Shown one piece after another: positions 734 to 14,120 of a stretch of DNA of 17,144 nt; positions within the stretch are counted from its first letter, which is position 1, and each line of letters starts with the position of its first letter. Under the pieces are notes generated by a model that saw nothing but the letters and a program-made list of their open reading frames with translations, had not been told where the DNA came from and did not search any database. This DNA is from Candidatus Heimdallarchaeota archaeon. GTDB lineage: Archaea; Asgardarchaeota; Heimdallarchaeia; JABLTI01. A program made the position numbers and the translations under genes. The stretch is taken from positions 1 to 17,144 of the forward strand of contig JAUWKS010000068.1 of assembly GCA_030614005.1 (NCBI GenBank). Direction: 5' to 3'.

Positions 734-1897
734 ATGGCTAAAAAGTCAATTCTAGTTGAGGTGAATCCCGCTGTTCTTATTTGGTTACGCGAGAGTTCTG
801 GTTGGGAAATTAATGATGTTGCTAAACGGTTACAAACTAGTGAACGGATTATATTAGCAATAGAGCAGGGGAAAAAACAACCTACTCTTCGTCAATTAAA
901 AACGCTTGCAGTCGCTTATCACCGTCCTCTTGCTATTTTTCTTCTTTCAGAACCGAAAGAGGAGAAACCTTTGCCTAAAGATTATCGTATGATAACCGGC
1001 AAACGGGATAGGTTTGATAAAAAGACTCTTCTAGCTATTCGTAAAGCTCGTCACTTACAGACTGTCAGTCAAGAATTAGCTAAGAATACTGATAGAGATA
1101 CTTCTCTACAAGTGGAATTCACCACTTTGCGAGCAAACCCCCAAGAAGTTGCTAGCTCTTATCGTGAACTTTTTCAATTAACTTTAGAGAAACAGCAGAA
1201 TTTTACTAGTTCCTACAAGTTCTTTTACTATTTGCGAGATGTTCTCGAAGAGCTAAATATTCTCGTATTTCAATTCTCCATGCCAATTGATGATGCTCGA
1301 GGTTTTACTCTTGCGGATGAATTGCCTGTAGCTATTGTTGTTAATACTAAAGATATTATTCAGGCTCGTCTTTTTTCCCTCATGCATGAATTTGCTCACA
1401 TTCTTTTAGGTGAAACTGTCATTGATTTACCAAATCTATCTAACTTTTCCGATCATAAGATTGAAACCTGGTGCAACGAGTTTGCTTCTGCTTTTCTCTT
1501 GCCCTCTTCCTTTGCTAATAACCTATTTGATCTCAACCTTGTAAATTTATTAGATACAGAGGTACTCAAAAGTCTCTCTCGAAAAACCAATCTCAGCAAA
1601 GGAATGTTGCTCTATAATATGTATAAGATGGGATTCATTACTCTTGAGAGTTATAAAGGAGTTCTCAATCGACATCAAAAATTAGCAGAAACAAAAGAAA
1701 AGGAAAAGAAAACGAAAGAGAAATCAGGTGGAGGCATTCCTCAAGATAGAAAATGCCTTTCTGAACTTGGCGTGAAATTTGTTTCCCTTGTTGCTGATAA
1801 TTTTGAGTCCAAAAAAATTACTTATAGCGATGCTCTCAGCTACCTTTCAATCAAAGCGAAGCATTTTGATAAAGTTCTTGCGAAGGCAGAGAAATGA
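734..1897 (+). CDS. XRE-family HTH fused to ImmA/IrrE (COG2856-like) Zn metallopeptidase
   Basis: N-terminal HTH (VNPAVLIWLRESSGWEINDVAKRL...IEQGKKQPTLRQL). HExxH motif in RLFSLMHEFAHILL, followed by ETWCNEFASAFLLP. Confidence 0.9.
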   Translation: MAKKSILVEVNPAVLIWLRESSGWEINDVAKRLQTSERIILAIEQGKKQPTLRQLKTLAVAYHRPLAIFLLSEPKEEKPLPKDYRMITGKRDRFDKKTLLAIRKARHLQTVSQELAKNTDRDTSLQVEFTTLRANPQEVASSYRELFQLTLEKQQNFTSSYKFFYYLRDVLEELNILVFQFSMPIDDARGFTLADELPVAIVVNTKDIIQARLFSLMHEFAHILLGETVIDLPNLSNFSDHKIETWCNEFASAFLLPSSFANNLFDLNLVNLLDTEVLKSLSRKTNLSKGMLLYNMYKMGFITLESYKGVLNRHQKLAETKEKEKKTKEKSGGGIPQDRKCLSELGVKFVSLVADNFESKKITYSDALSYLSIKAKHFDKVLAKAEK

Positions 1898-2385
1898 CTG
1901 CGAATCATTATATTGTTGATACTTGTTCCCTTGTGGACTTGAATAGGTATAATCCCATTGACGTTTTTCCCTCAGTTTGGAAAAGATTAAGCATATTGGT
2001 TCGCAACAATTTACTTCATTCTCCTATTGAGGTATTAAAGGAACTTCAAAAACAAGATGATCAAATTGTTGCTTGGGCTAAACAACATAAAAAGATGTTT
2101 CTTCCCGAAAGTGCACCGCAAATTCTTATTGTTATTGAAATCATGCGTGATTTCCCTGCTTTAGTTGATGCCAGTAAACAATATAGTGCTGATCCTTGGG
2201 TCATTGCTTTGGCTTATGAGCTTACTACTGGTAATCAAAAAACTATGTTTGAAGACAAAATAATGATTGTCACAGAAGAAACCTTGCGTGGCAATAAAGT
2301 CAAAATTCCTCTTGTTAGTCAACATTATCAGCTAGAATGTATTAATTTAGTAGAAATGTTTCGCAGAGAGGGGTGGAAATTTTAG
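1894..2385 (+). CDS. DUF4411-family PIN-like domain protein (putative toxin)
   Basis: YIVDTCSLVDL, EVLKEL, ADPWVIALA, IVTEE and KIPLVSQHYQLECI motifs. ATGA overlap with the XRE-ImmA gene, its usual partner. Confidence 0.85.
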   Translation: MTANHYIVDTCSLVDLNRYNPIDVFPSVWKRLSILVRNNLLHSPIEVLKELQKQDDQIVAWAKQHKKMFLPESAPQILIVIEIMRDFPALVDASKQYSADPWVIALAYELTTGNQKTMFEDKIMIVTEETLRGNKVKIPLVSQHYQLECINLVEMFRREGWKF

Positions 2386-2539: not shown

Positions 2540-2878
2540 ATGGTGAATTCCCAAGAAATTTATCGCGAAATCGATTCGTGTAATATTTCATTCCGAAATA
2601 AGAGAGAAATCATTTTTCATCTCAGCAAATATCCAGAGCTAATTCCTATTATAACCCAAGCACCTCGAAAAATTCGGAATTATTTTCCAAAATCCCCGAT
2701 AGTACTGGAAATGCGTAAAGACCCCGAAAAAGGTTCCTCTATCTTAATGCTTTACATTCAAACATCTCTATCGGCAGAGGAAGCTTTTAATAATCTTGAT
2801 ATGATAGATGAGATTTGGTGGTTCAATACTTCCAAGAAAACAAGTTGTAATTTGTGTCTACACGTAGAGTTCCAGTAG
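2540..2878 (+). CDS. Small HEPN-associated protein (putative antitoxin)
   Basis: Overlaps the HEPN gene. The pattern YPELIPII..A..KIRNYFP..LE...DPE...LYIQT..EEA...LD.IDE.WW...LCLHVEF resembles small proteins I recall upstream of HEPN genes. No canonical MNT GS/DxD motif. Confidence 0.6.
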   Translation: MVNSQEIYREIDSCNISFRNKREIIFHLSKYPELIPIITQAPRKIRNYFPKSPIVLEMRKDPEKGSSILMLYIQTSLSAEEAFNNLDMIDEIWWFNTSKKTSCNLCLHVEFQ

Positions 2879-3252
2879 AATTTACAAGGCATCAATATTT
2901 CTATCTAGCTAAAGAACTCATCAATCAATCGTGTGATGAGACTGATTATAAAGAAGCTTTACTTCGAAGTGCTATAAGTAGAGCCTATTATGCTACTCAC
3001 TATTTAGCTAGAAATTATCTTATAAAAGACAAAGGACTCACACCTCCTAAGAAAAAGATCGATATGCATAAATGGGTGATTGATGAAATAAGGAAGGATT
3101 CCACAATTGGAACTGTTCATGTGCAATTAAGTAGATTGCGTGATGATAGAAACAGAGCTGATTATGAAGATACTATTAGAGGAGTAAGGAGTATAGCTGA
3201 AGGAGCTATAAGAGGGGCGCAAAGTGCGATTGATACGTTAGATTCTACTTGA
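2854..3252 (+). CDS. HEPN domain protein (UPF0332/COG1895-like)
   Basis: RSAISRAYYA and LSRLRDDRNRADYED motifs. GTG start with a 25-bp overlap with the upstream ORF. Confidence 0.85.
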   Translation: MSTRRVPVEFTRHQYFYLAKELINQSCDETDYKEALLRSAISRAYYATHYLARNYLIKDKGLTPPKKKIDMHKWVIDEIRKDSTIGTVHVQLSRLRDDRNRADYEDTIRGVRSIAEGAIRGAQSAIDTLDST

Positions 3253-3546: not shown

Positions 3547-4060
3547 CTATTCTTCTTCAGAGGACAATTCCAGTTGTATTGTTTCGTAAAGCATCGCAGT
3601 CATTCGGAAATTAGTTTTATTAATTGCTGATAAGATAGTGAACGTAGCACTCTTAGAAAGTTTTTTTTTGCTTTTTAAAGAAACTAAAAGACCAAGCAAT
3701 CCTGTTAAATGAAAACCTTCTGCTCGTGCAACGGAACGAGCTATTAAGTCATCAAAGATTACAACATCTTCCGCTTTCTTAGTGGAAGCTAAAATAGATA
3801 TCTCTCCATCATGTAATCCAAGAGAGCGATAGAGTTGCAGTGAAGCATCTGGTAGAACCAGATCAGGTAGAATTTGTATTTTCTCTTCGGATACGAGTGC
3901 TTCAACTGCTTTTTTAATTGGTGAAGGACGGAACGTTACTTCTTTTAGAACCGTTGTTGTTATGGTGAAATTTGGAACTAACTTACAAAACAGTTGCAGA
4001 TAACCAAATCTCAGCCAACAGGATAATACTTGAAGCATCAAAAACAAATCGAAGGGTCAT
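3547..4060 (-). pseudogene. DUF3368-like PIN domain protein with a +1 frameshift near its 5' end
   Basis: ATG at 4060, 2 bp after the antitoxin stop, reads MTLRFVFDASSIILLAEI and then stops. Removing one T from the TTT at 4006-4008 joins it to GYLQLFCKL...LHDGEISIL...VIFDDLIARSVARAEG..LTGLLGLL, giving 170 aa. Confidence 0.8.
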
Positions 4061-4062
4061 TA

Positions 4063-4371
4063 TTACAGTATTCCTTCAATTGAATGTATATCTCTTTGAA
4101 GTTCGCTAGTACCATAGCGAAAATAGGTATACCCCCGTTCTTCTGCGAGATTGAGAAATTCCACTATAGATAGCTTCGATCCCGCCGCGGCATAAGTGAG
4201 GGAAATTTCGTTATTAATTAAGCGATTAAAGTAATAATCAAAAAGTAGCCCTTTTTTACCACGTTTGAGTATTTTTCTTACAAGCTCAGACTTGCTTATC
4301 CCGAATTTCTTTGCTAATGCATCGAGTTCTTTGGATTCTTCATCATTCACCCGTACTTGAACTATGGTCAT
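4063..4371 (-). CDS. Ribbon-helix-helix / UPF0175-like antitoxin
   Basis: Likely start at 4371 (MTIVQVRVNDEESKELDALAKKFGISKSELVRKIL is RHH-like), followed by ISLTYAAAGSKLSIVEFLNLAEERG (UPF0175-like). The longer 4533 start overlaps cas6 and looks non-coding. Confidence 0.75.
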   Translation of the reverse strand: MTIVQVRVNDEESKELDALAKKFGISKSELVRKILKRGKKGLLFDYYFNRLINNEISLTYAAAGSKLSIVEFLNLAEERGYTYFRYGTSELQRDIHSIEGIL

Positions 4372-4380
4372 ACTATTCAC

Positions 4381-4409
4381 AGTACAAATAATAGCTATTG
4401 TAGTACAAA
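4381..4409. promoter_or_regulatory. Candidate autoregulatory operator of the RHH-PIN pair
   Basis: AGTACAAA direct repeats at 4381-4388 and 4402-4409 (21-bp period) flank the palindrome AATAGCTATT (4390-4399), 10 bp upstream of the antitoxin start. Confidence 0.35.
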
Positions 4410-4465
4410 AATATTTCTCATTAAAAAAACAAGTGTATTTCGAGACTAGTAAAAATCGATTGAAG

Positions 4466-5287
4466 TCACATTCTATTTCTTTCGAGAGAATATCTAACAC
4501 AACCGAGTCCTGCAGTTCGATTTTCTCCAACATTACTAAATTTAGCGAATTGCGCTAAAGCATGAAGCCTTAGCTTATATTTCTCTTTTCCAGTAAGCTT
4601 GTAGCGTACCCAGCCCTTGACCCCTATCTTGAGTTTGTCCTTAGCAACATAAGCTTTTCTCGTTCGAAGTTCGAAAGCATTTACTGAAACATGTTTGTCA
4701 ATCCAAGTGAGTAATTCCGAAGTATTGATCCGGTATTTATTATCTGCAAAAGCATTCCAGAGAACTGCAAGATCCATGAAAAGATATCTCGGGTCTGGAA
4801 ATCGTAGTGGAGAATCTTTGGTGGCAATATCAAAATATGTCGGTGTTAAAAACTCTAAAGTTAGAAATTCTTGCTCTCCTTTCGCATGCTGTAGAAATTC
4901 TTTAGCAGTTTTCTTGTGCATTTCAATACCAACCACTACAAAATCAATTGTTCCAATTTGTAGTATCATTTCCTCTACTTTCGAAATTAGCTTCTCCATT
5001 TGTTCCGCAAGCTCATGAGTAAGGATGCCTAAACGAAAGGTATATGCTACCTCTTCTTTAATTATTATCTCTCCTTTATGTGTCCAATTCATGCTGCTCT
5101 TATAGGTATGTAGTGTCGATAAACTATATGGTGAATATTTATTTTTTTTCTGGAACTGTTTGTATAGTTTATTATTATTATCCAGTTTCTTTATAACCTT
5201 CAATAACGCTTCATTTATCAGTTGTCCCGTGAAAGAGGGCAATATACCATCTGTTTTAGATTTGAGAACAAAACGAAAATTATGCAT
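4466..5287 (-). CDS. cas6: Stand-alone CRISPR-associated endoribonuclease Cas6-like protein
   Basis: PYSLS, LEFLTPTYF, FPDPRYLF..L..LWNAF and GVKGWVRY motifs, plus a C-terminal Gly-rich loop NVGENRTAGLG. Purine-rich RBS AGGAAAGG upstream. Confidence 0.88.
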   Translation of the reverse strand: MHNFRFVLKSKTDGILPSFTGQLINEALLKVIKKLDNNNKLYKQFQKKNKYSPYSLSTLHTYKSSMNWTHKGEIIIKEEVAYTFRLGILTHELAEQMEKLISKVEEMILQIGTIDFVVVGIEMHKKTAKEFLQHAKGEQEFLTLEFLTPTYFDIATKDSPLRFPDPRYLFMDLAVLWNAFADNKYRINTSELLTWIDKHVSVNAFELRTRKAYVAKDKLKIGVKGWVRYKLTGKEKYKLRLHALAQFAKFSNVGENRTAGLGCVRYSLERNRM

Positions 5288-5708: not shown

Positions 5709-5952
5709 GTTATCTAGTTTCAGAAAAAATAGAAAACACATGCTTCTATACAATTAGCTATTGAAATTCAATTAGAAAAAATGTTACCTGAAAATTATAC
5801 TATCAAAAATGTGATCAAATATATCTGCATATCTATGACAATTACTTTGGTGATAATCAGAGTACTTATACAAAGCTTATAAGCTAAGAATTAATGGTTA
5901 TTATAAAAATAAAAATTTTACACTCTATTATCAAATATTTTTTCTTTTTAAC

Positions 5953-7227
5953 CTAGATTGATTGCAACCAAGTTTTTAGATGTTGATTTGAAAGGTTATA
6001 AAGATTTAATCTATAACCTTCAGTTTCTGCTATTTCTTTTGATAATAATTGCTTATTTTCATCCAAATCTAATTCCGAAACTTTGTCTAATTCGGTTTTG
6101 TGTACAATCAGAAAATGTTTCTTAGTATCAGTCATATAGTTTAATTCATCAAAGAATCCTTCAACAAGCTTTCCTTTCGTAAGTTTTGGTAGCTTAGATT
6201 TCTTAAAGCTTTTACAAAACTCACAGTTACATAGTAATTTATCATGTTCCGACAAGAATTCTCGAGCATATGTTTTAGATGCATATGTGTGCAAAAATGG
6301 CAAATAAAATCTTTCTGGACTACCTCCGCCACCTGTTGATGCATCTACATTTCGTTTCTCACTTAGACCAATACCTCGTGAATAGCCTGTTAGCCCTTTT
6401 TTTGTTAGCAATAGAGAAAAATAGTCACCATATAGATTATAGAGTGGTTTTCCATTTGCAGTGAACTTTTCAATTAATTTAGTGAACTGCTTTAGATAGA
6501 GTAGAATTTCTGTTCGTTCATTAAAATCTGAAATCCAAATAATTATTCCTTTAAAATTTCTATAATCCTCAACTAATTTATCAATTTGAATTTCATTTAA
6601 AAGCATCTCCTTTGAAAAACAAATTATGGGATAAATTGGATATTCTTTTTCAATCCTAATCATTTCATTTGCTAGCATAAGGGAAATATTATACCATGGG
6701 TCAGATGTTGATTGAAAATAGAAGTATGGTGTCGTAAAAAATACCAGGCTTAGCTCCTTTACTTCAACTGTTTTTCGATTTAAGATCTCATTATATCTCT
6801 GTAGAGATTTTCTTGTAGTATCATCTTCCCCTTTATTTATTGCTTCGGTAAAATCTTTCTGGAATTTTAACGCATCTCTAGCTACTAAAGATATCAAATT
6901 TTCATCTTTATTCAGGAAATCTTTTGGCAGTAGTTCCCTATATTCTAAAATATTCTGAATCTTTTCATCCATTGATGAATATAGCTTCTGGACTGACTTC
7001 TTTATATGACCAAATTTTTTGATATTGTTTTGATCTCTAGCTATTATGTATGTCATTGGATCAATAAAAAATGGTTTATTCATTTTTAGAATAAATTTTG
7101 GCAATGATTTAATAAAATATGCTGCAAGATGAGCACTTATCGTTATTCCAAAAAAGGTTTCATTAAATTCTTCCAAAATATTCTTTTCATTCATAGGTCC
7201 TATTCTGTAGAAATTATTAGCACTCAA
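5953..7227 (-). CDS. Divergent tRNA-guanine transglycosylase (TGT/DpdA)-like protein with Zn site
   Basis: Alternating hydrophobic strands and helices suggest a TIM barrel (FFIDPMTY, FFTTPYF, IIIWISD, YNLYGDYF, GYSRGIG). The C-terminal CNCEFC-x32-H matches the TGT CxCxxC...H Zn site. TTG start with GGGG RBS. The fold call is inference. Confidence 0.5.
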   Translation of the reverse strand: MSANNFYRIGPMNEKNILEEFNETFFGITISAHLAAYFIKSLPKFILKMNKPFFIDPMTYIIARDQNNIKKFGHIKKSVQKLYSSMDEKIQNILEYRELLPKDFLNKDENLISLVARDALKFQKDFTEAINKGEDDTTRKSLQRYNEILNRKTVEVKELSLVFFTTPYFYFQSTSDPWYNISLMLANEMIRIEKEYPIYPIICFSKEMLLNEIQIDKLVEDYRNFKGIIIWISDFNERTEILLYLKQFTKLIEKFTANGKPLYNLYGDYFSLLLTKKGLTGYSRGIGLSEKRNVDASTGGGGSPERFYLPFLHTYASKTYAREFLSEHDKLLCNCEFCKSFKKSKLPKLTKGKLVEGFFDELNYMTDTKKHFLIVHKTELDKVSELDLDENKQLLSKEIAETEGYRLNLYNLSNQHLKTWLQSI

Positions 7228-7621
7228 TATTTAATCCCCTTTCAATTTGATTCAAAACTTCTCTCTTAACTGATTTATGTATAATTTTAGACTTTTTCGC
7301 TCTTTGTATAATTTCAATACTATTATCTTTCACAGCAATTAACCCTATCCCGTATTCCTTCAAAATATCTAATTGTACCCTGTGAACGAACTTCTCCGAA
7401 AGAGCAATATATGATTCATGAGCACAAAGTCTACATGCTAATGCTTGTTGCAGAGCTTTCTTCCAATTACTTACTTTAACTTCAATTGCGATAAGTTTTT
7501 TCTTTTTATGACCAACCAAGTCAATATATCGTGTGAGAAATTTTATTTCTTCGTAGTAATTATATCCTTCATTCTTCAAGTAATCAACAATAGGTGGGTA
7601 TAATTCACATTCATAGACCAT
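7217..7621 (-). CDS. Small PD-(D/E)XK restriction-endonuclease-like protein
   Basis: E (YECEL), E (YEEI), D (YIDLV), EVK and ALQQA motifs in the order typical of the REase fold. Confidence 0.75.
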   Translation of the reverse strand: MVYECELYPPIVDYLKNEGYNYYEEIKFLTRYIDLVGHKKKKLIAIEVKVSNWKKALQQALACRLCAHESYIALSEKFVHRVQLDILKEYGIGLIAVKDNSIEIIQRAKKSKIIHKSVKREVLNQIERGLNIEC

Positions 7622-8046
7622 TATACAGTATCCCCAAATCTATCAATAAATTCCTCTGGTGTGAGTAATTCTATTTCATCCTTTTTACTCATGAAATCTT
7701 TTGTATTTCTAGTTATTATAATTTCACATTTAGCACTTTTTGCTGAATGAAACTGTATTGCATCTTCAAAGTCTTCGATTTTACATTCAAAAGCTTTAGT
7801 TATTATATCCTTATTAACTGGAATTATTTCAAAATTTTCAATGAGTGTTTCTGTATGTTCCCTTACAATTGGTAAATCGTATCCTCCTCTCTTTTTGATA
7901 TAGTAATATAGTAATGCAACAGTTAAACTTGAGATATATCCTTTAATCAAGCCATTTCTTACCTTAAATAGAATAATTGTACTTTGTTTCCAACGAGAAC
8001 GCTGTGTTGCACAATCACACAAAATATTTGCATCAACAAAAATCAA
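7621..8046 (-). CDS. PIN domain (VapC/PIN_3-like) ribonuclease
   Basis: IFVDANILCD, DFEDAIQFHSA and IITRNTKDF motifs. TTGA overlap upstream and TAATG overlap downstream. Confidence 0.88.
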   Translation of the reverse strand: MIFVDANILCDCATQRSRWKQSTIILFKVRNGLIKGYISSLTVALLYYYIKKRGGYDLPIVREHTETLIENFEIIPVNKDIITKAFECKIEDFEDAIQFHSAKSAKCEIIITRNTKDFMSKKDEIELLTPEEFIDRFGDTV

Positions 8047-8711
8047 TCTGTATACCTCTCAACCAATAATTCCCCTAATAATTTCTTTTCTTCACTAAGT
8101 GATATTGTTGGCAGTATCCCGATAACTCGAAAGAATTCAGGATCTACATCTAAATGTGGATAAGCTTCTTTGAATTCCTCTAAAGGACTTTTCAATATCT
8201 CATGTTTAATGATGGATTTAGAGGTGAACTTTCTATAATTTTTATAGACATATTCCAATAGATCTTTACCAGACAAATTGGAATATTTTCTCATAATTGA
8301 GTCAATTTTATCTCGATTTGTTTGAGATAATTTTTGATATATATAAGGTGCTACTTTTTTCCCGTCAGTTGATAATGAATAAACCCGTATTTCATTCGTT
8401 TCTATTTCATCTTCATCTGCTATTATTTTTCTTTCCAGATCTTGTAAACAATAGTCATTTAAACTCTTTGTTTTCTTAGTTTCTATCTGAACTAATCTTT
8501 CATCTTGTAACAGCTCTGAATAATCTAGTACTTTTGCTGACCATGGTCCAAAATTATAAGCTTCAAAATTAAACTCTGTCAGTAGCTTTTCAAATCCTCC
8601 TTCAAATAACATGAGAAAGATTAATTTTACTAATCTAGTTGCTCCCCAAACGGTTTTCTCTTTACTTCTATAAATTATTAATAATAGTAAATCCAAACCT
8701 GAAACTGTCAT
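8043..8711 (-). CDS. Panacea/DUF4065 (SocA-like) antitoxin-domain protein with C-terminal extension
   Basis: GATRLVKLIFL, FEAYNFGPWS and DLLEYVYKNY motifs, plus an extra ~45-aa C-terminal tail. Confidence 0.7.
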   Translation of the reverse strand: MTVSGLDLLLLIIYRSKEKTVWGATRLVKLIFLMLFEGGFEKLLTEFNFEAYNFGPWSAKVLDYSELLQDERLVQIETKKTKSLNDYCLQDLERKIIADEDEIETNEIRVYSLSTDGKKVAPYIYQKLSQTNRDKIDSIMRKYSNLSGKDLLEYVYKNYRKFTSKSIIKHEILKSPLEEFKEAYPHLDVDPEFFRVIGILPTISLSEEKKLLGELLVERYTD

Positions 8712-8755: not shown

Positions 8756-8901
8756 TCTGTTTTAAAAACGATAATTAAACTTCTTTTTATTGTCAAATTA
8801 CTACTTTTTAGTAATGGTATTTTATAAGTTATATTAGTATCTTTCTGAGATGCCAGTTTGTGATATAAATAGAATTTTTCATAGTATTTTACTGAGAAAT
8901 C

Positions 8902-9582
8902 ATGTCCAATGACTTCAATCTCAGTAAAACGGAATTTACAGCATACTTAGATTGTCCGCTAAAATTCTATCTCCAAAAGGAGCAACATTTGACAACTAAG
9001 GAAGGACCCAGAGAGAATCAAGATACTAGTAACCATCCCGCTCATTTAGCTAGAGGTATAAAATGGCATGATCGTCTTACTACCTTTTATCAGAAAAAGG
9101 CAAAAGGTTTGCTAGCAGGAACAATCTCGGAGCGAGAGGCATTGAACCATCCGTATTATCAGCTTTTCTGGCAACAGGAACTCCATCGACGAGCATTCGA
9201 TCCTGATAATTGGTATCCGTTAGCATTCGAATATTATTGCTCTTCTCCGATTCTTCGAGGAAAGATCGATCGCATCGATCCTCTTGGTCCCTCTGACTGT
9301 TGTCTTGTTGAATACAAAGGTTCTTGGGAAAATCGAGGTTATCTCTATGAGGAATTGCTGTTCTATGCTCTTCTTGTTTCTGAGAGTGAGTCATTTCAAC
9401 AGGAGATTGGTCGCCCTGTTTCTCAAGTTGCTTGTTATTTTTACAACACTGGTGAATGGTATACTCGAGAGGTTTCTCCAGCTGATCTGTCTTCTTTTCG
9501 AGAGTATCTTGTTGCTCTTCGTTCCGAGATGGTTTCTGGTAACTGGGCTCGTAAAATCAATTGTTCTCTCTCTTCTCAATGA
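8902..9582 (+). CDS. Cas4/AddB-like PD-(D/E)XK nuclease; probable true end 9646 via frameshift
   Basis: N-terminal YLDCP, RGIKWH, LRGKIDRID, VEYK and ELLFYA motifs. Ends NCSLSSQ*, while another frame continues LLNDCSYAVVC...RD* to 9646 and supplies the missing C-terminal cysteines. Confidence 0.8.
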   Translation: MSNDFNLSKTEFTAYLDCPLKFYLQKEQHLTTKEGPRENQDTSNHPAHLARGIKWHDRLTTFYQKKAKGLLAGTISEREALNHPYYQLFWQQELHRRAFDPDNWYPLAFEYYCSSPILRGKIDRIDPLGPSDCCLVEYKGSWENRGYLYEELLFYALLVSESESFQQEIGRPVSQVACYFYNTGEWYTREVSPADLSSFREYLVALRSEMVSGNWARKINCSLSSQ

Positions 9583-10652: not shown

Positions 10653-11756
10653 CTATTTCTTGATTTCAGCTGATAAAGGAACTATGCCTTCAATAGGAAG
10701 TTTCTTCTGACAAGTTGGGCATTTCCCTCTGATTTTCACCCATTCTTGTATATGAGACAAGTGGCTTTTCGTTTCACATAAACTACACTTTCCAGCTTCT
10801 TCTCCAAAGGAGATTGGTAATTTGCAGACATTACATATCAAAATTTCTTTCTTACATCCTGAACAGCTTATATCTTGTTTGTTTATTGGATTACCACAAT
10901 AATAACAAGTAGAATATCTATTCGGTAAATCCAGAAATTTATCATCAGTTTTTTTAATAAAAACATTTTCTAATTCTAAAAATTCACCTGTAATTTTCCC
11001 CTCGTTTAATAGCAGTTGAATTAAAGAAATCGTTTCATTTTCGGTAATTTTCAATAATTGCGTAAAGCGGGTTATTACTACTGGAATATCTGTGCGAAAC
11101 TCAGCTATTAATTGTATAATTTCCTTTTTGGTTTGTTCGATATCTTTAGGAACTCCTGTATCAATTGAGGTTTTACTTTTAATTTCTAATTTTGTGCAGT
11201 TTTTAAGAGTAGTAACATCAAGCTCTTTTATTTGATTGCCATTAAGGTTAAGCTCTTGTAGCTTAGTGTATGTTTTCAGTGGGGAAAGGTCGATCGAAAT
11301 AAGCTGATTAAAAGAAAGATCGAGCTTTTGTAGTTTTGAACATGTTTTCAGCGGGGATAGATTTATCGAAGTAAGCAGATTATTACGAAGATTAACCCAT
11401 TGCAGCTCCACGCATGTTTTTAGTGGAGATAGATTGATCATAGTAAGCTGATTTTCACTAAGACCGAGTAATTGTAGCTTTGTACACCGTTCCAATGAGG
11501 ACAAGTCAATAGAAACAAGCTGATTAGTATCAAGAGTGAGCACTTGTAGTTCTGTACATCCTTTCAGTGAGATAATATCAATTGAAACAAGCTGATTGTT
11601 ATGAAGCCAGAGCTTTTGCAGTTTTGTACATTCTATAAGTGGTGATAAGTCAATTGAAGCAAGCTGATGATTTTCAAGATCAAGCTCTTGCATATTTCTT
11701 TTTATTTTTCTGCTAAACTTCTCACCATTTGCTTTAATCCCTGTTATAACAACCAT
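10653..11756 (-). CDS. Leucine-rich repeat protein with winged-helix-like middle, Zn ribbon and C-terminal RING-like domain
   Basis: ~7 LRRs, then GKITGEF, then CYYC..CSGC, then CNVC-x12-CSLC-x4-H-x2-H-x3-W-x6-CPTC. Confidence 0.85.
   Translation of the reverse strand: MVVITGIKANGEKFSRKIKRNMQELDLENHQLASIDLSPLIECTKLQKLWLHNNQLVSIDIISLKGCTELQVLTLDTNQLVSIDLSSLERCTKLQLLGLSENQLTMINLSPLKTCVELQWVNLRNNLLTSINLSPLKTCSKLQKLDLSFNQLISIDLSPLKTYTKLQELNLNGNQIKELDVTTLKNCTKLEIKSKTSIDTGVPKDIEQTKKEIIQLIAEFRTDIPVVITRFTQLLKITENETISLIQLLLNEGKITGEFLELENVFIKKTDDKFLDLPNRYSTCYYCGNPINKQDISCSGCKKEILICNVCKLPISFGEEAGKCSLCETKSHLSHIQEWVKIRGKCPTCQKKLPIEGIVPLSAEIKK
11187..11696 (-). repeat. ~7 tandem 24-aa (72-bp) leucine-rich repeats
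   Basis: Unit like TKLQKLWLHNNQLVSIDIISLKGC, repeated with high similarity. Confidence 0.9.
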
Positions 11757-11942
11757 AGTCTACCCTTCAGATATTACAATCTTGAATTATCTTTCTACAA
11801 TAAAAAAGTTGTTTGAGAGAATATTTATTCAAATAAAAAAGAGATCAGAGTTAGACGAATGTCATTTTTAATCATAATTCTTTTATTGAAAAAAACCATT
11901 TAATCATACTATAGAAGATTACTCATCAATTAAGAGGGATTA

Positions 11943-14120
11943 GTGATTAGACAGCTGAGACTATTTAACATAAGGAAGAGTTTTTTTTCTAGAATAATCT
12001 TTGTTTTCTTTATTATGAGTTTATTTTGTTTAACAACAATTGGTAATCTAAAATCAATTGCACTTCAAAAACAAACAACTACAGAGTTTAATCTTGAACA
12101 AGAGGACGAGTGTGAAAAGATTGGTCATTTTCAATTTGATCATTTCGTAGATATTATTGTATCGAACAATATTGCATACATTATTTCTTCTGATACTGGA
12201 TTACATATTTTTGATGTTACGAATAAGTTAGCACCCAAGCTCCTTTTCAAGGACAACTATTTTGGGTATTATAGAGATCTAGCAAAAGAAGGTAATTATC
12301 TTTATATTGTTAACACCCCTGCAGATTCTTATAGTTTCTTCTTAACTATTTATAATGTGAGTAATCCTAGTAATCCATTAGTAGTTTCAATTACTCTCTT
12401 ATCTTTATCTAAAAGTGTTCGAGATATTGCAGTCCAAGATGATTATGTTTTTTACACCACCTCTGAAGGTTTCTTTGTGTATAATGTATCTGATCATGTC
12501 CATCCTCTATTAATCAATTCAACTTATTCTGATTCCACGGAAGAGATTTTTCTCAATGGTCAAATTGCGTATATCAGCAGTTATTTTCAACAGAGTATTT
12601 TTGTTTACAATATCTCAACACCAAATAACCCAGAACTTTTGTGTCAGTACGAAGGAAATGATATTGCTACTTCAACCTCTTTCAGACCTCAATATATTAC
12701 AATTTTTGATAGTTACCTATATGTTGTTGACTCATATATTGGTTTAATTATTATTAATTCAACAAATCCTTCAGAATTGACTTATATTCACAACGTTCCG
12801 ATTGATTTACAATTTTCTTATAAAAGTAGCATTCAATTAGTTGACGATTATTTTTATATTAATGACGATACTAATGGTGTTTTCATTTTAGACAAAAACA
12901 ACGGCACTCACCCAACCTATTTTGGGAATTATTCTTGTTATGCTAATTTCATGACTGCTGCTGATTCCTATCTTTTCATAACAAATGGTGTTTTCGCGAT
13001 TCTTGATATACAAAATCCTGGAAATATTCAGTTACTTTCACAGATTGGTATTGAAGGTTTCTACAATGCAATTCAAGATCTTGTTATAGCAGATAATTAC
13101 GCTTTTTGTGCTATTGGTGGTGGATTGTTAGTTCTAGATATTTCAAATCTTTCGAACCCAATAAATGTTTATTATTCGAATGAATATCTTTGGGCAAAAA
13201 CTGTTGAGTTACTGGGTGATTACCTGTTTGTAGGTTCTTCTGAAACCTTAACAGTGTTAGATATTACAGATCCTTCAACACCTGTTGTAGTAGGTTCATT
13301 CGATTCATTTGTTATTGATGGTGTCAAGAATGAGTTTTATAGTATCAATAAAATATTCATTCATGGTACCTATGCTTATTTGACCTATTGGTCAATCAAC
13401 AAAGGTAATGTTTTTCTTATCCTTGATATTAGCCATCCACCTGAACCGATTGGAGTAGCAGCTCATCATTTTGGTAATACCTCTATTACTTTCTTGTTTT
13501 GCAGTGGAAATTATATCTGTGATAACAAGGCCTACGTTGGTTTTGGAGAAACTCTCTACATCTTTGATGTAAAAAATAAAGCGAGTCCAAAAATTATTAG
13601 TACTTATACTTTTGACGATCTTGCTCCAATACACGATATCATTGTTGAATCCGGTTATGCTTTTGTTGGAAGTTATAATGGCTTTGCTATTTTAGATATC
13701 CACAAATCAACAAAAGTTCGTTTAGTTTCAAAGCTTGATGAAAATAGCCATACTATTACCGTTGCTGGACAGTACGCTTGTATTGGACGATATGCATTAC
13801 AGCTCTTCGACATGAGCGATCCGAATAATCCTGATTTTATTACTTCCTATAATGATACGGAAACAGTAAATGGTTTAAACCCGGATCCGAGTTTCGGTAT
13901 GGAAAAGATCATTCTAATTGATAATCATGCCTTCATTGCTTATGGACGCAATGGTTTTGTTATTGTAGAACTACCAGTTACAATAACTGGATCTATTCCA
14001 GCTTTAACTGGGTATTACATCTTACCATTTGGGCTTCTAATTCTTATCCCTATAATTATCATTCGAAAAAATAACAAATCAAAAATGAAAAACGATGAAT
14101 TCTTTAGTGTAAATAACTAA
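11943..14120 (+). CDS. LVIVD-repeat beta-propeller surface protein
   Basis: Repeated YA(Y/F)V...GL.ILDISNPSNP-type units, an N-terminal hydrophobic segment, and a C-terminal TM followed by basic residues. Confidence 0.88.
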   Translation: MIRQLRLFNIRKSFFSRIIFVFFIMSLFCLTTIGNLKSIALQKQTTTEFNLEQEDECEKIGHFQFDHFVDIIVSNNIAYIISSDTGLHIFDVTNKLAPKLLFKDNYFGYYRDLAKEGNYLYIVNTPADSYSFFLTIYNVSNPSNPLVVSITLLSLSKSVRDIAVQDDYVFYTTSEGFFVYNVSDHVHPLLINSTYSDSTEEIFLNGQIAYISSYFQQSIFVYNISTPNNPELLCQYEGNDIATSTSFRPQYITIFDSYLYVVDSYIGLIIINSTNPSELTYIHNVPIDLQFSYKSSIQLVDDYFYINDDTNGVFILDKNNGTHPTYFGNYSCYANFMTAADSYLFITNGVFAILDIQNPGNIQLLSQIGIEGFYNAIQDLVIADNYAFCAIGGGLLVLDISNLSNPINVYYSNEYLWAKTVELLGDYLFVGSSETLTVLDITDPSTPVVVGSFDSFVIDGVKNEFYSINKIFIHGTYAYLTYWSINKGNVFLILDISHPPEPIGVAAHHFGNTSITFLFCSGNYICDNKAYVGFGETLYIFDVKNKASPKIISTYTFDDLAPIHDIIVESGYAFVGSYNGFAILDIHKSTKVRLVSKLDENSHTITVAGQYACIGRYALQLFDMSDPNNPDFITSYNDTETVNGLNPDPSFGMEKIILIDNHAFIAYGRNGFVIVELPVTITGSIPALTGYYILPFGLLILIPIIIIRKNNKSKMKNDEFFSVNN

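Follow-up and report, generated by a model that had tools for sequence, protein, structure and literature searches.

A four-gene Panacea, nuclease and TGT-fold cassette with a swappable effector slot in a Heimdallarchaeotal defence island

What does an operon do that joins a Panacea protein, a PIN-domain protein, a small nuclease and a relative of tRNA-guanine transglycosylase (TGT)? The question is raised by four overlapping genes of a Candidatus Heimdallarchaeota archaeon (GenBank assembly GCA_030614005.1). They lie within positions 1 to 17,144 of contig JAUWKS010000068.1, the whole stretch that we analyzed and refer to as the window. An initial annotation, made from the sequence alone, took the genes for a candidate undescribed defence system in which a TGT-like enzyme exchanges or excises DNA bases and works with the small nuclease, backed by a PIN toxin that Panacea holds in check. 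With moderate confidence, we read the operon differently, as one copy of a horizontally mobile four-gene cassette that acts as a triggered toxin-antitoxin or abortive-infection switch. The four genes, in operon order, are:

8043..8711, minus strand: gene 1, Panacea-domain winged-helix antitoxin-like adaptor, 222 amino acids (aa), ATG start at 8711
7621..8046, minus strand: gene 2, PIN_3-type PIN-domain protein in the swappable effector/toxin slot, 141 aa, TTG start
7217..7621, minus strand: gene 3, small predicted PD-(D/E)XK nuclease, 134 aa, isoelectric point (pI) 9.1
5953..7227, minus strand: gene 4, TGT-fold TIM-barrel protein with a Cys3His zinc motif, 424 aa, TTG start, pI 8.6

Reading the sequence directly bears out the four minus-strand open reading frames (ORFs) and the overlaps of 4, 1 and 11 bp that the initial annotation had given them. 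Genes 1 and 2 meet at gaTTGAtt (4 bp), genes 2 and 3 at gtaTAATGgtc (1 bp), and genes 3 and 4 share positions 7217-7227 (11 bp). Its four domain calls (Panacea, PIN, PD-(D/E)XK and TGT-like) also hold, on the Pfam matches, conserved signature and fold match (Z score 19-20.5) described below.

Is the arrangement peculiar to this contig? We collected 17 loci from genomes and 80 from metagenomes and used iterated profiles to search their ORFs. For synteny, 61 loci were informative, each with 2200 nt or more upstream of the TGT-fold gene. A Panacea-like gene is present in all 61 and the nuclease gene in 59, with the order kept and the genes mostly overlapping; annotated contigs L125-L127 have the same four-gene order. 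Because this order recurs in 59 of the 61 informative loci, in archaea and in bacteria, it far exceeds what chance would produce. Chance adjacency of a toxin-antitoxin pair and a nuclease/TGT pair is ruled out by the synteny together with gene fusions and the co-variation of a protein tail, both described below. The initial annotation had called for a gene-neighbourhood check across genomes, and the four-gene synteny proves to be conserved.

The gene 4 family comprises 700 clusters at 50% identity (E-value up to 1e-3) and is spread over at least nine phyla of archaea and bacteria. Lineages represented among the named genome loci are Heimdall- and Thorarchaeota, Thermoplasmatota, Bathyarchaeia, LCP-89, Elusimicrobiota, Armatimonadota, Acidobacteria, Chloroflexota, Planctomycetota and others. 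The TGT-fold family was found in 15 of 300 sampled genomes of the phylum and in two of nine other genomes searched of the genus, so the family is accessory and patchy. One complete cassette is carried by the mobilizable plasmid pSI-1 of Arthrobacter sp. AK-1 (L128, NC_010494.1 61825-64653), where it adjoins a relaxase gene and all four of its genes are annotated 'hypothetical protein'.

Which parts of the cassette are constant? Gene 2 of the window matches the Pfam families PIN_3 (E-value 1.8e-12) and PIN (1.4e-5). Elsewhere its position is taken by other proteins: PF01850 PIN proteins occupy it in 21 loci, PIN_3 proteins in 7 (window included) and membrane proteins in 43. Residues D5 and D95 are kept across both PIN types in the alignment. 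The membrane-type proteins have 2-4 predicted membrane helices and fall into at least nine families with no BLAST link between them. When the gene 2 types are placed on a maximum-likelihood tree of the TGT-fold proteins, each corresponds to roughly one clade (14 groups need 14 changes, and shuffled types need 43.8 on average), which indicates that gene 2 is rarely replaced and that the other three genes are inherited jointly. The PIN protein is the occupant of a swappable effector slot, and Panacea, nuclease and TGT-fold protein are its constant partners.

The Panacea protein changes with the slot. Gene 1 (P0001) matches Pfam SocA_Panacea (PF13274) with an E-value of 8e-8 and 33.6 bits, where the curated cut-off is 25.7 bits; 18 of 37 gene 1 relatives match the same model at E-values up to 0.01. 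Its predicted structure (predicted local distance difference test, pLDDT, 86.8) has a domain built on a winged helix. The closest solved structure is the C-terminal toxin-binding domain of DarG (7yk3_B; Z score 10.6, 146 residues aligned, root-mean-square deviation (rmsd) 4.5, Foldseek E-value 4.7e-3, 13% identity), a match about 2 Z units over generic MarR/PadR regulators. The family is conserved up to S166 and continues in a C-terminal tail of variable length. This tail measures 55-57 aa in cassettes with PIN_3 proteins, 18-30 aa with PF01850 PIN proteins and 4-13 aa with membrane proteins; that of the window, at 56 aa, is specific to PIN_3-type cassettes. Some PanA antitoxins neutralize via terminal extensions, and the Panacea core has been proposed as sensory (PMC10440598). 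Co-variation of the tail with the type of gene 2 fits this published picture of extensions that neutralize and a core that senses.

Gene 3 has only weak database matches, to REase_MTES_1575, YraN and Hjc. Across 84 relatives, E4, D34, E47-x-K49 and Q59 show 93-96% conservation at each position. These conserved positions, together with the weak restriction-endonuclease-like matches, assign gene 3 to the PD-(D/E)XK superfamily, as a putative nuclease with an intact E-D-ExK-Q site. In two loci the nuclease is naturally fused to the TGT-fold protein, with a Panacea-like gene and a membrane-protein gene upstream of each fusion:

L129 4207-5889: P0115, nuclease::TGT-fold fusion of 560 aa, nuclease family profile E-value 6e-41
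L131 5001-6674: P0128, nuclease::TGT-fold fusion of 557 aa, nuclease family profile E-value 1e-36

Given the overlap of the two genes and the natural fusions, we propose that nuclease and TGT-fold protein work jointly, as a unit that acts on nucleic acid or together with it. Both proteins of this constant arm are basic (pI 9.1 and 8.6).

What, then, is gene 4? Among the protein and its 33 aligned relatives we found no Pfam, NCBIfam or PADLOC family match beyond weak noise. A profile search of PDB sequences returned chance-level matches only, and an ESM-Atlas feature search returned only clusters of 'hypothetical protein'. The predicted structure is more informative. The model (pLDDT 89.8) has eight barrel strands and matches archaeosine TGT (ArcTGT) and bacterial TGT with Z scores of 19-20.5 over 290-310 residues (rmsd 3.1-3.9). 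Foldseek gives E-values of about 1e-4 to 1e-3 for TGTs, and Cap10 is also among the fold matches (9ntn_A, 1.4e-3). The TTG start is credible because the residues that it adds, NFYRIGP, are conserved in homologues and form barrel strand 1. The zinc motif CxCxxC..H (Cys3His) is conserved in at least 156 of 162 relatives. Membership of the P4 gop-beta-cII system, suggested by a weak fold match to an AlphaFold DB cluster named 'T4 beta protein' (template modelling (TM) score 0.46/0.56), was rejected, with no Pfam Beta_protein match among 33 members.

To compare catalytic residues, a gene 4 profile of the 162 relatives was aligned with hhalign to an ArcTGT profile from genomes related to that of the window. 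Residues 244-387 align with a probability of 76% (E-value 2e-5), so that CxCxxC..H falls on the zinc site of ArcTGT, strand 7 on its motif LFGAGHP and strand 8 on GxDxFDS. Outside this range the hhalign alignment is unreliable, and we used strand order and spacing instead; a global-mode alignment was meaningless and was discarded. The strand spacing of the model agrees with the ArcTGT motifs from strand 4 on and approximately before it. Between strands 3 and 4 is a family-specific insertion of about 77 residues, mostly helical, at about residues 59-148.

TGT and DpdA require three invariant Asp residues (PMC10164549). The nucleophilic one follows strand 8 (D280 in Zm TGT, D256 in DpdA), and Cap10 retains its equivalent, D248 (bioRxiv 2025.04.06.647259). 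In gene 4, the nucleophile position (FD of GxDxFD) aligns by hhalign to S283 of GYSRG. Across the 162 relatives this position is S in 94, C in 32, V in 17, A in 7 and T in 6 (156 of 162), and D or E in none. By strand order and spacing, an invariant P167-Y168-F169 appears to replace the base-recognition Asp of TGT (LD(I/L)P). On the same basis D56 and Y60 would correspond to the general acid/base Asp and the stacking aromatic residue (TDSG..Y/F); D56, in the motif D-P-x-T-Y, is the sole near-invariant Asp of the family (160 of 162). The TGT family model PF01702 matches none of 33 family members even at E-values up to 1, and a search of this genome with it finds two ordinary TGT-family genes elsewhere, gene 4 not among them. 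Gene 4 is a member of the TGT fold superfamily that, on its catalytic residues, falls outside the transglycosylases. Its conserved pocket (Q123, K/R292, Y308, E379) likely serves some ligand binding or chemistry.

These residues bear on the initial annotation's proposal of restriction-modification or base excision similar to that of Dpd, in which gene 4 exchanges or removes DNA bases, gene 3 cuts unmodified or abasic DNA and Panacea with PIN forms a backup pair. We regard this as unlikely. The TGT fold, with a Z score of about 20 and an aligned zinc site, agrees with it, as do the placement of D56-x3-Y60 by strand order at the TGT acid/base Asp and stacking Tyr, the basic character of the gene 3 and gene 4 proteins and the fusion of the conserved nuclease to the TGT-fold domain in some genomes; a water-using glycosylase could also do without a covalent nucleophile. 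However, of the three Asp residues that TGT and DpdA share without exception (PMC10164549), two appear to be missing, with position 283 never acidic and probably only the acid/base residue (D56) kept, and PF01702 does not recognize the family. No QueC/D/E, dpdB/C or other preQ0 genes are found in the window or in annotated related loci; for the window itself, the absence of dpdB/C and queuosine-pathway genes agrees with the initial annotation. The idea of gene 4 as a DpdA-like base exchanger or exciser is not supported by this comparison.

How could the constant arm communicate with the Panacea protein? A complex prediction for genes 1 and 4 scored 0.71 (0.71-0.72 over three runs), and none of the three controls exceeded 0.00. 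In a rough calibration that used our own alignments, 58 of 80 solved complexes and 2 of 110 mismatched pairs reached the 0.71 mark. The runs share at least 83% of contacts, and the pLDDT of the partners is at least 86. The Panacea protein is thus predicted to bind the TGT-fold protein. We know of no solved complex between proteins of these two kinds. On the gene 1 side, the modelled interface involves Panacea core residues 2-7, 46-78, 116-124 and 165-167. On the gene 4 side, it involves helices 37-48, 72-81 and 137-149, including the family-specific insertion. Four conserved residues are in or adjacent to this interface (D63, G117 and S166 in gene 1, S78 in gene 4), and the C-terminal tail of gene 1 is left free. 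Such predicted docking also speaks against an independent Panacea-PIN backup pair. The initial annotation's backup toxin is better described as the occupant of a swappable slot, next to a Panacea protein that is predicted to bind the TGT-fold protein.

Contact between the two proteins could have other meanings. In type IV CBASS (cyclic oligonucleotide-based antiphage signalling system), Cap10 acts on a deazaguanylated CdnD N-terminus, and the TGT-fold protein might likewise attach or remove a base at the Panacea N-terminus. Panacea residues 2-7 do touch the TGT-fold protein in the complex model, and Cap10 is among the fold matches. We consider this extremely unlikely nonetheless, as the position of Cap10 D248, which is equivalent to the TGT nucleophile, is never acidic here, no QueC-like Cap9 partner occurs in any locus examined, and the contacts fall on the helical insertion (137-149), away from the pocket residues.

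The predicted contact would also fit a toxin-antitoxin module that serves only addiction or stress and takes no part in defence against viruses, in which the TGT-fold protein stabilizes the Panacea antitoxin in the manner of the chaperone in toxin-antitoxin-chaperone (TAC) modules. The order of Panacea and toxin genes is that of PanAT pairs (PMC8832971), and the plasmid copy beside a relaxase gene would suit addiction. But a mere stabilizer needs neither strongly conserved pocket residues and a zinc site nor a fused nuclease with a conserved active site, and the swapping of effectors around constant partners, in a defence-island context, is typical of immune systems. We think this explanation improbable.

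Is the output always a toxin-like protein? In four loci (L009, L074, L080, L081) an ECF-type (extracytoplasmic function) sigma-70 gene is followed by a Panacea-like gene and then the TGT-fold gene, with neither nuclease nor toxin-like gene (L009 4423-7305, L080 316-3215). The Panacea-like protein of this variant has an extra N-terminal extension of about 90 residues, for which we found no Pfam match; to label it an anti-sigma domain would be a guess. The absence of the nuclease here counts further against base exchange coupled to DNA cleavage. A shape search of the ESM Atlas also found Bacillota Ser/Thr kinases (665-683 aa) whose non-kinase part resembles the gene 4 model (P0004) with TM scores of 0.76-0.77 over 360 residues; canonical TGT scores lower than this kinase-fused domain (0.61 over 313). 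The sigma variant and the kinase fusions indicate that more than one kind of output is attached to the Panacea/TGT-fold pair or to the TGT-fold domain by itself.

These variants raise the prospect of a general signalling switch, in which the TGT-fold protein responds to a metabolite, for instance a nucleobase, by releasing a sigma factor, membrane protein or RNase through Panacea. The sigma-70 variant, the kinase fusions and the conserved aromatic-lined pocket would all fit. Yet most outputs are PIN or small membrane proteins, which are typical of toxins, the distribution is patchy and accessory, and the neighbourhoods are toxin-antitoxin or defence islands and a plasmid. A signalling switch of this kind strikes us as very unlikely.

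The triggered toxin-antitoxin or abortive-infection switch that we favour would work as follows. Gene 1, a Panacea adaptor with a fold like that of the DarG C-terminal domain, would restrain a toxic effector encoded by gene 2. Here the effector would be a PIN_3 protein of RNase type, probably held via the 56-aa C-terminal tail of gene 1. Genes 3 and 4 would form a constant sensing arm, made of a PD-(D/E)XK nuclease and a zinc-binding TGT-fold protein without the transglycosylase nucleophile, and the TGT-fold protein would use the helical insertion particular to its family to dock on the Panacea core. When the arm senses its cue, for which foreign or damaged nucleic acid or a nucleobase-like ligand is the likeliest candidate, the Panacea protein would change in such a way that the effector is freed. 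We infer the toxicity of gene 2, its neutralization by gene 1, the sensing role and the anti-virus purpose.

Tentatively, a broader claim can be made: the TGT fold may have been recruited as an immune or stress sensor, in which a zinc barrel without transglycosylase chemistry and a PD-(D/E)XK nuclease, fused to it or encoded next to it, jointly recognize a nucleic-acid or nucleobase cue and, via Panacea, license interchangeable outputs (PIN RNases, membrane-disrupting proteins, a sigma factor, fused kinases) in archaea, including Asgard archaea, and in bacteria.

Several observations weigh against a triggered switch of this design. The 0.71 given to the predicted complex is the model's own confidence and no measurement. 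By alignment, the PIN_3 protein of the window clearly keeps two of the four canonical acidic PIN positions (D5 and D95); in the PIN_3-type group L stands at the second position and N at the fourth, which makes RNase activity of this protein uncertain. Gene 4 shows enzyme-like conservation (D56, Q123, P167-Y168-F169, K/R292, Y308, E379) and may catalyze a reaction instead of merely sensing. The TGT-fold protein of pSI-1 is without the CxCxxC cysteines, and the zinc site is thus not universal in the family. A tblastn search of 50,697 phage records gave no match to the family, which leaves the linkage to viruses indirect. Finally, another Heimdallarchaeota genome (GCA_019058195.1, L123 10001-11281) has a solitary TGT-fold gene without the other three; the two genes upstream run on the opposite strand, and neither the Panacea profile nor the nuclease profile matches them. 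This gene may be what is left after decay, or the TGT-fold protein may be used independently here.

What surrounds the operon? It sits in a toxin-antitoxin/defence island, surrounded by an ImmA/IrrE-DUF4411 pair, a HEPN gene, an RHH/UPF0175-DUF3368 PIN pair, Cas6 and a Cas4-like nuclease. The neighbouring features of the window are:

734-2385, plus strand: helix-turn-helix and Peptidase_M78 (ImmA/IrrE) gene overlapping a DUF4411 (PIN-like) gene, a separate pair of toxin-antitoxin/defence type
2540-3252, plus strand: ORF of 112 aa (no Pfam match) overlapping a HEPN-domain ORF, likely an MNT/HEPN-type pair
3547-5287, minus strand: Cas6-like gene (273 aa), then a ribbon-helix-helix (RHH)/UPF0175 protein, then a weak DUF3368 (PIN-like) match
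8902-9582: Cas4-like PDDEXK_1 gene
10653-14120: leucine-rich-repeat protein (367 aa) divergent from a 725-aa LVIVD-repeat/beta-propeller protein, unrelated to the cassette

A repeat scan of the window showed no CRISPR array. The window contains a 102-nt direct repeat with 80% identity, at 456-557 and 8889-8990, one copy of which is the 5' end of the Cas4-like gene. The pair brackets about 8.4 kb that contain every toxin-antitoxin/defence gene of the island, the operon included, and could mark an integration or cassette-accumulation hotspot. PDDEXK_1 genes are also found near the cassette in L123 and L126, and a TIR gene is near it in L125. The leucine-rich-repeat gene has 72-nt periodic DNA repeats at 11229-11660.

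The DNA flanking the four genes has the following signals, all read from the sequence:

8755-8746, minus strand: TATA-like box TTTTTATAAT of the leader, 5' of the gene 1 ATG
8720-8715, minus strand: AGGTGA ribosome-binding site of the leader, 5' of the ATG at 8711
5903..5915, minus strand: oligo-T run TTTTTATTTTTAT, about 40 nt past the gene 4 stop

The TATA/GGTGA leader seen by the initial annotation is confirmed, and its TTTTTATAAT box is the putative promoter of the operon. The oligo-T run is a possible archaeal terminator. G+C content is 29.6% in the operon and 33.1% in the rest of the window.

Has the cassette been described before? The initial annotation did not recognize it as a named system, and we agree. 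In PADLOC-DB v2.0, gene 1 gives partial matches to the candidate PDC-M19A and to Panacea-like parts of other models. Genes 2-4 have no match there, for the window and for three bacterial copies, and no complete system is found. We found no description of a four-gene Panacea/nuclease/TGT-fold cassette in the literature, with subscription-only papers outside our coverage. If our reading is correct, a widespread system is added to the catalogue of prokaryotic conflict systems. The 'universal antitoxin' Panacea would gain a defined upstream partner, which bears on the question of Ernits et al. (2023) of what its core senses. The TGT fold would have been reused in immunity a third time, after DpdA and Cap10, and apparently without base-exchange chemistry. 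The Arthrobacter pSI-1 copy offers a cultured and tractable starting point.

The closest known systems are PanA-PanT pairs (PMC8832971, PMC10440598), in which a Panacea gene likewise lies directly upstream of and overlaps a gene from varied toxin-like families (PIN, small membrane proteins), and the Panacea protein has toxin-specific terminal extensions. Unlike them, the cassette does not carry this pair by itself: in 59 of 61 loci the pair is tied to both a PD-(D/E)XK nuclease and a TGT-fold protein, and its Panacea protein is predicted to bind the fourth protein. The screens of Kurata et al. excluded neighbourhoods that suggested operons of more than three genes (PMC8832971). Set beside the PanA-PanT definition, the cassette has the Panacea domain and the adjacent toxin-type gene, but is a four-gene unit where a two- or three-gene operon is specified.

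With TGT/ArcTGT, DpdA and Cap10, the cassette protein shares the TIM barrel, the C-terminal zinc subdomain and, to judge by strand order, probably an Asp-x3-Tyr after strand 3, and with DpdA and Cap10 the setting in a conflict system. It differs from TGT, DpdA and Cap10 in having no PF01702 match, in the replacement of the nucleophile Asp by S/C/V/A/T and, apparently, by strand order, of the base-recognition Asp by aromatic residues, in the insertion of about 77 residues that is the predicted Panacea-docking surface, and in the lack of preQ0, dpdB/C and Cap9 partners. DarTG is linked to the cassette through the DarG domain that binds the DarT toxin, the best solved match of gene 1; the likeness is by fold only, as the cassette has neither a macrodomain nor a DarT ADP-ribosyltransferase. 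Like tripartite TAC modules and other toxin-antitoxin systems whose accessory genes are conserved, the cassette has an extra protein predicted to bind the antitoxin and thereby control toxin release, but its extra proteins are a nuclease and a TGT-fold protein with conserved catalytic-looking sites, not a SecB-like chaperone. We class the cassette as the Panacea toxin-antitoxin theme with a new constant arm of TGT-fold protein and nuclease.

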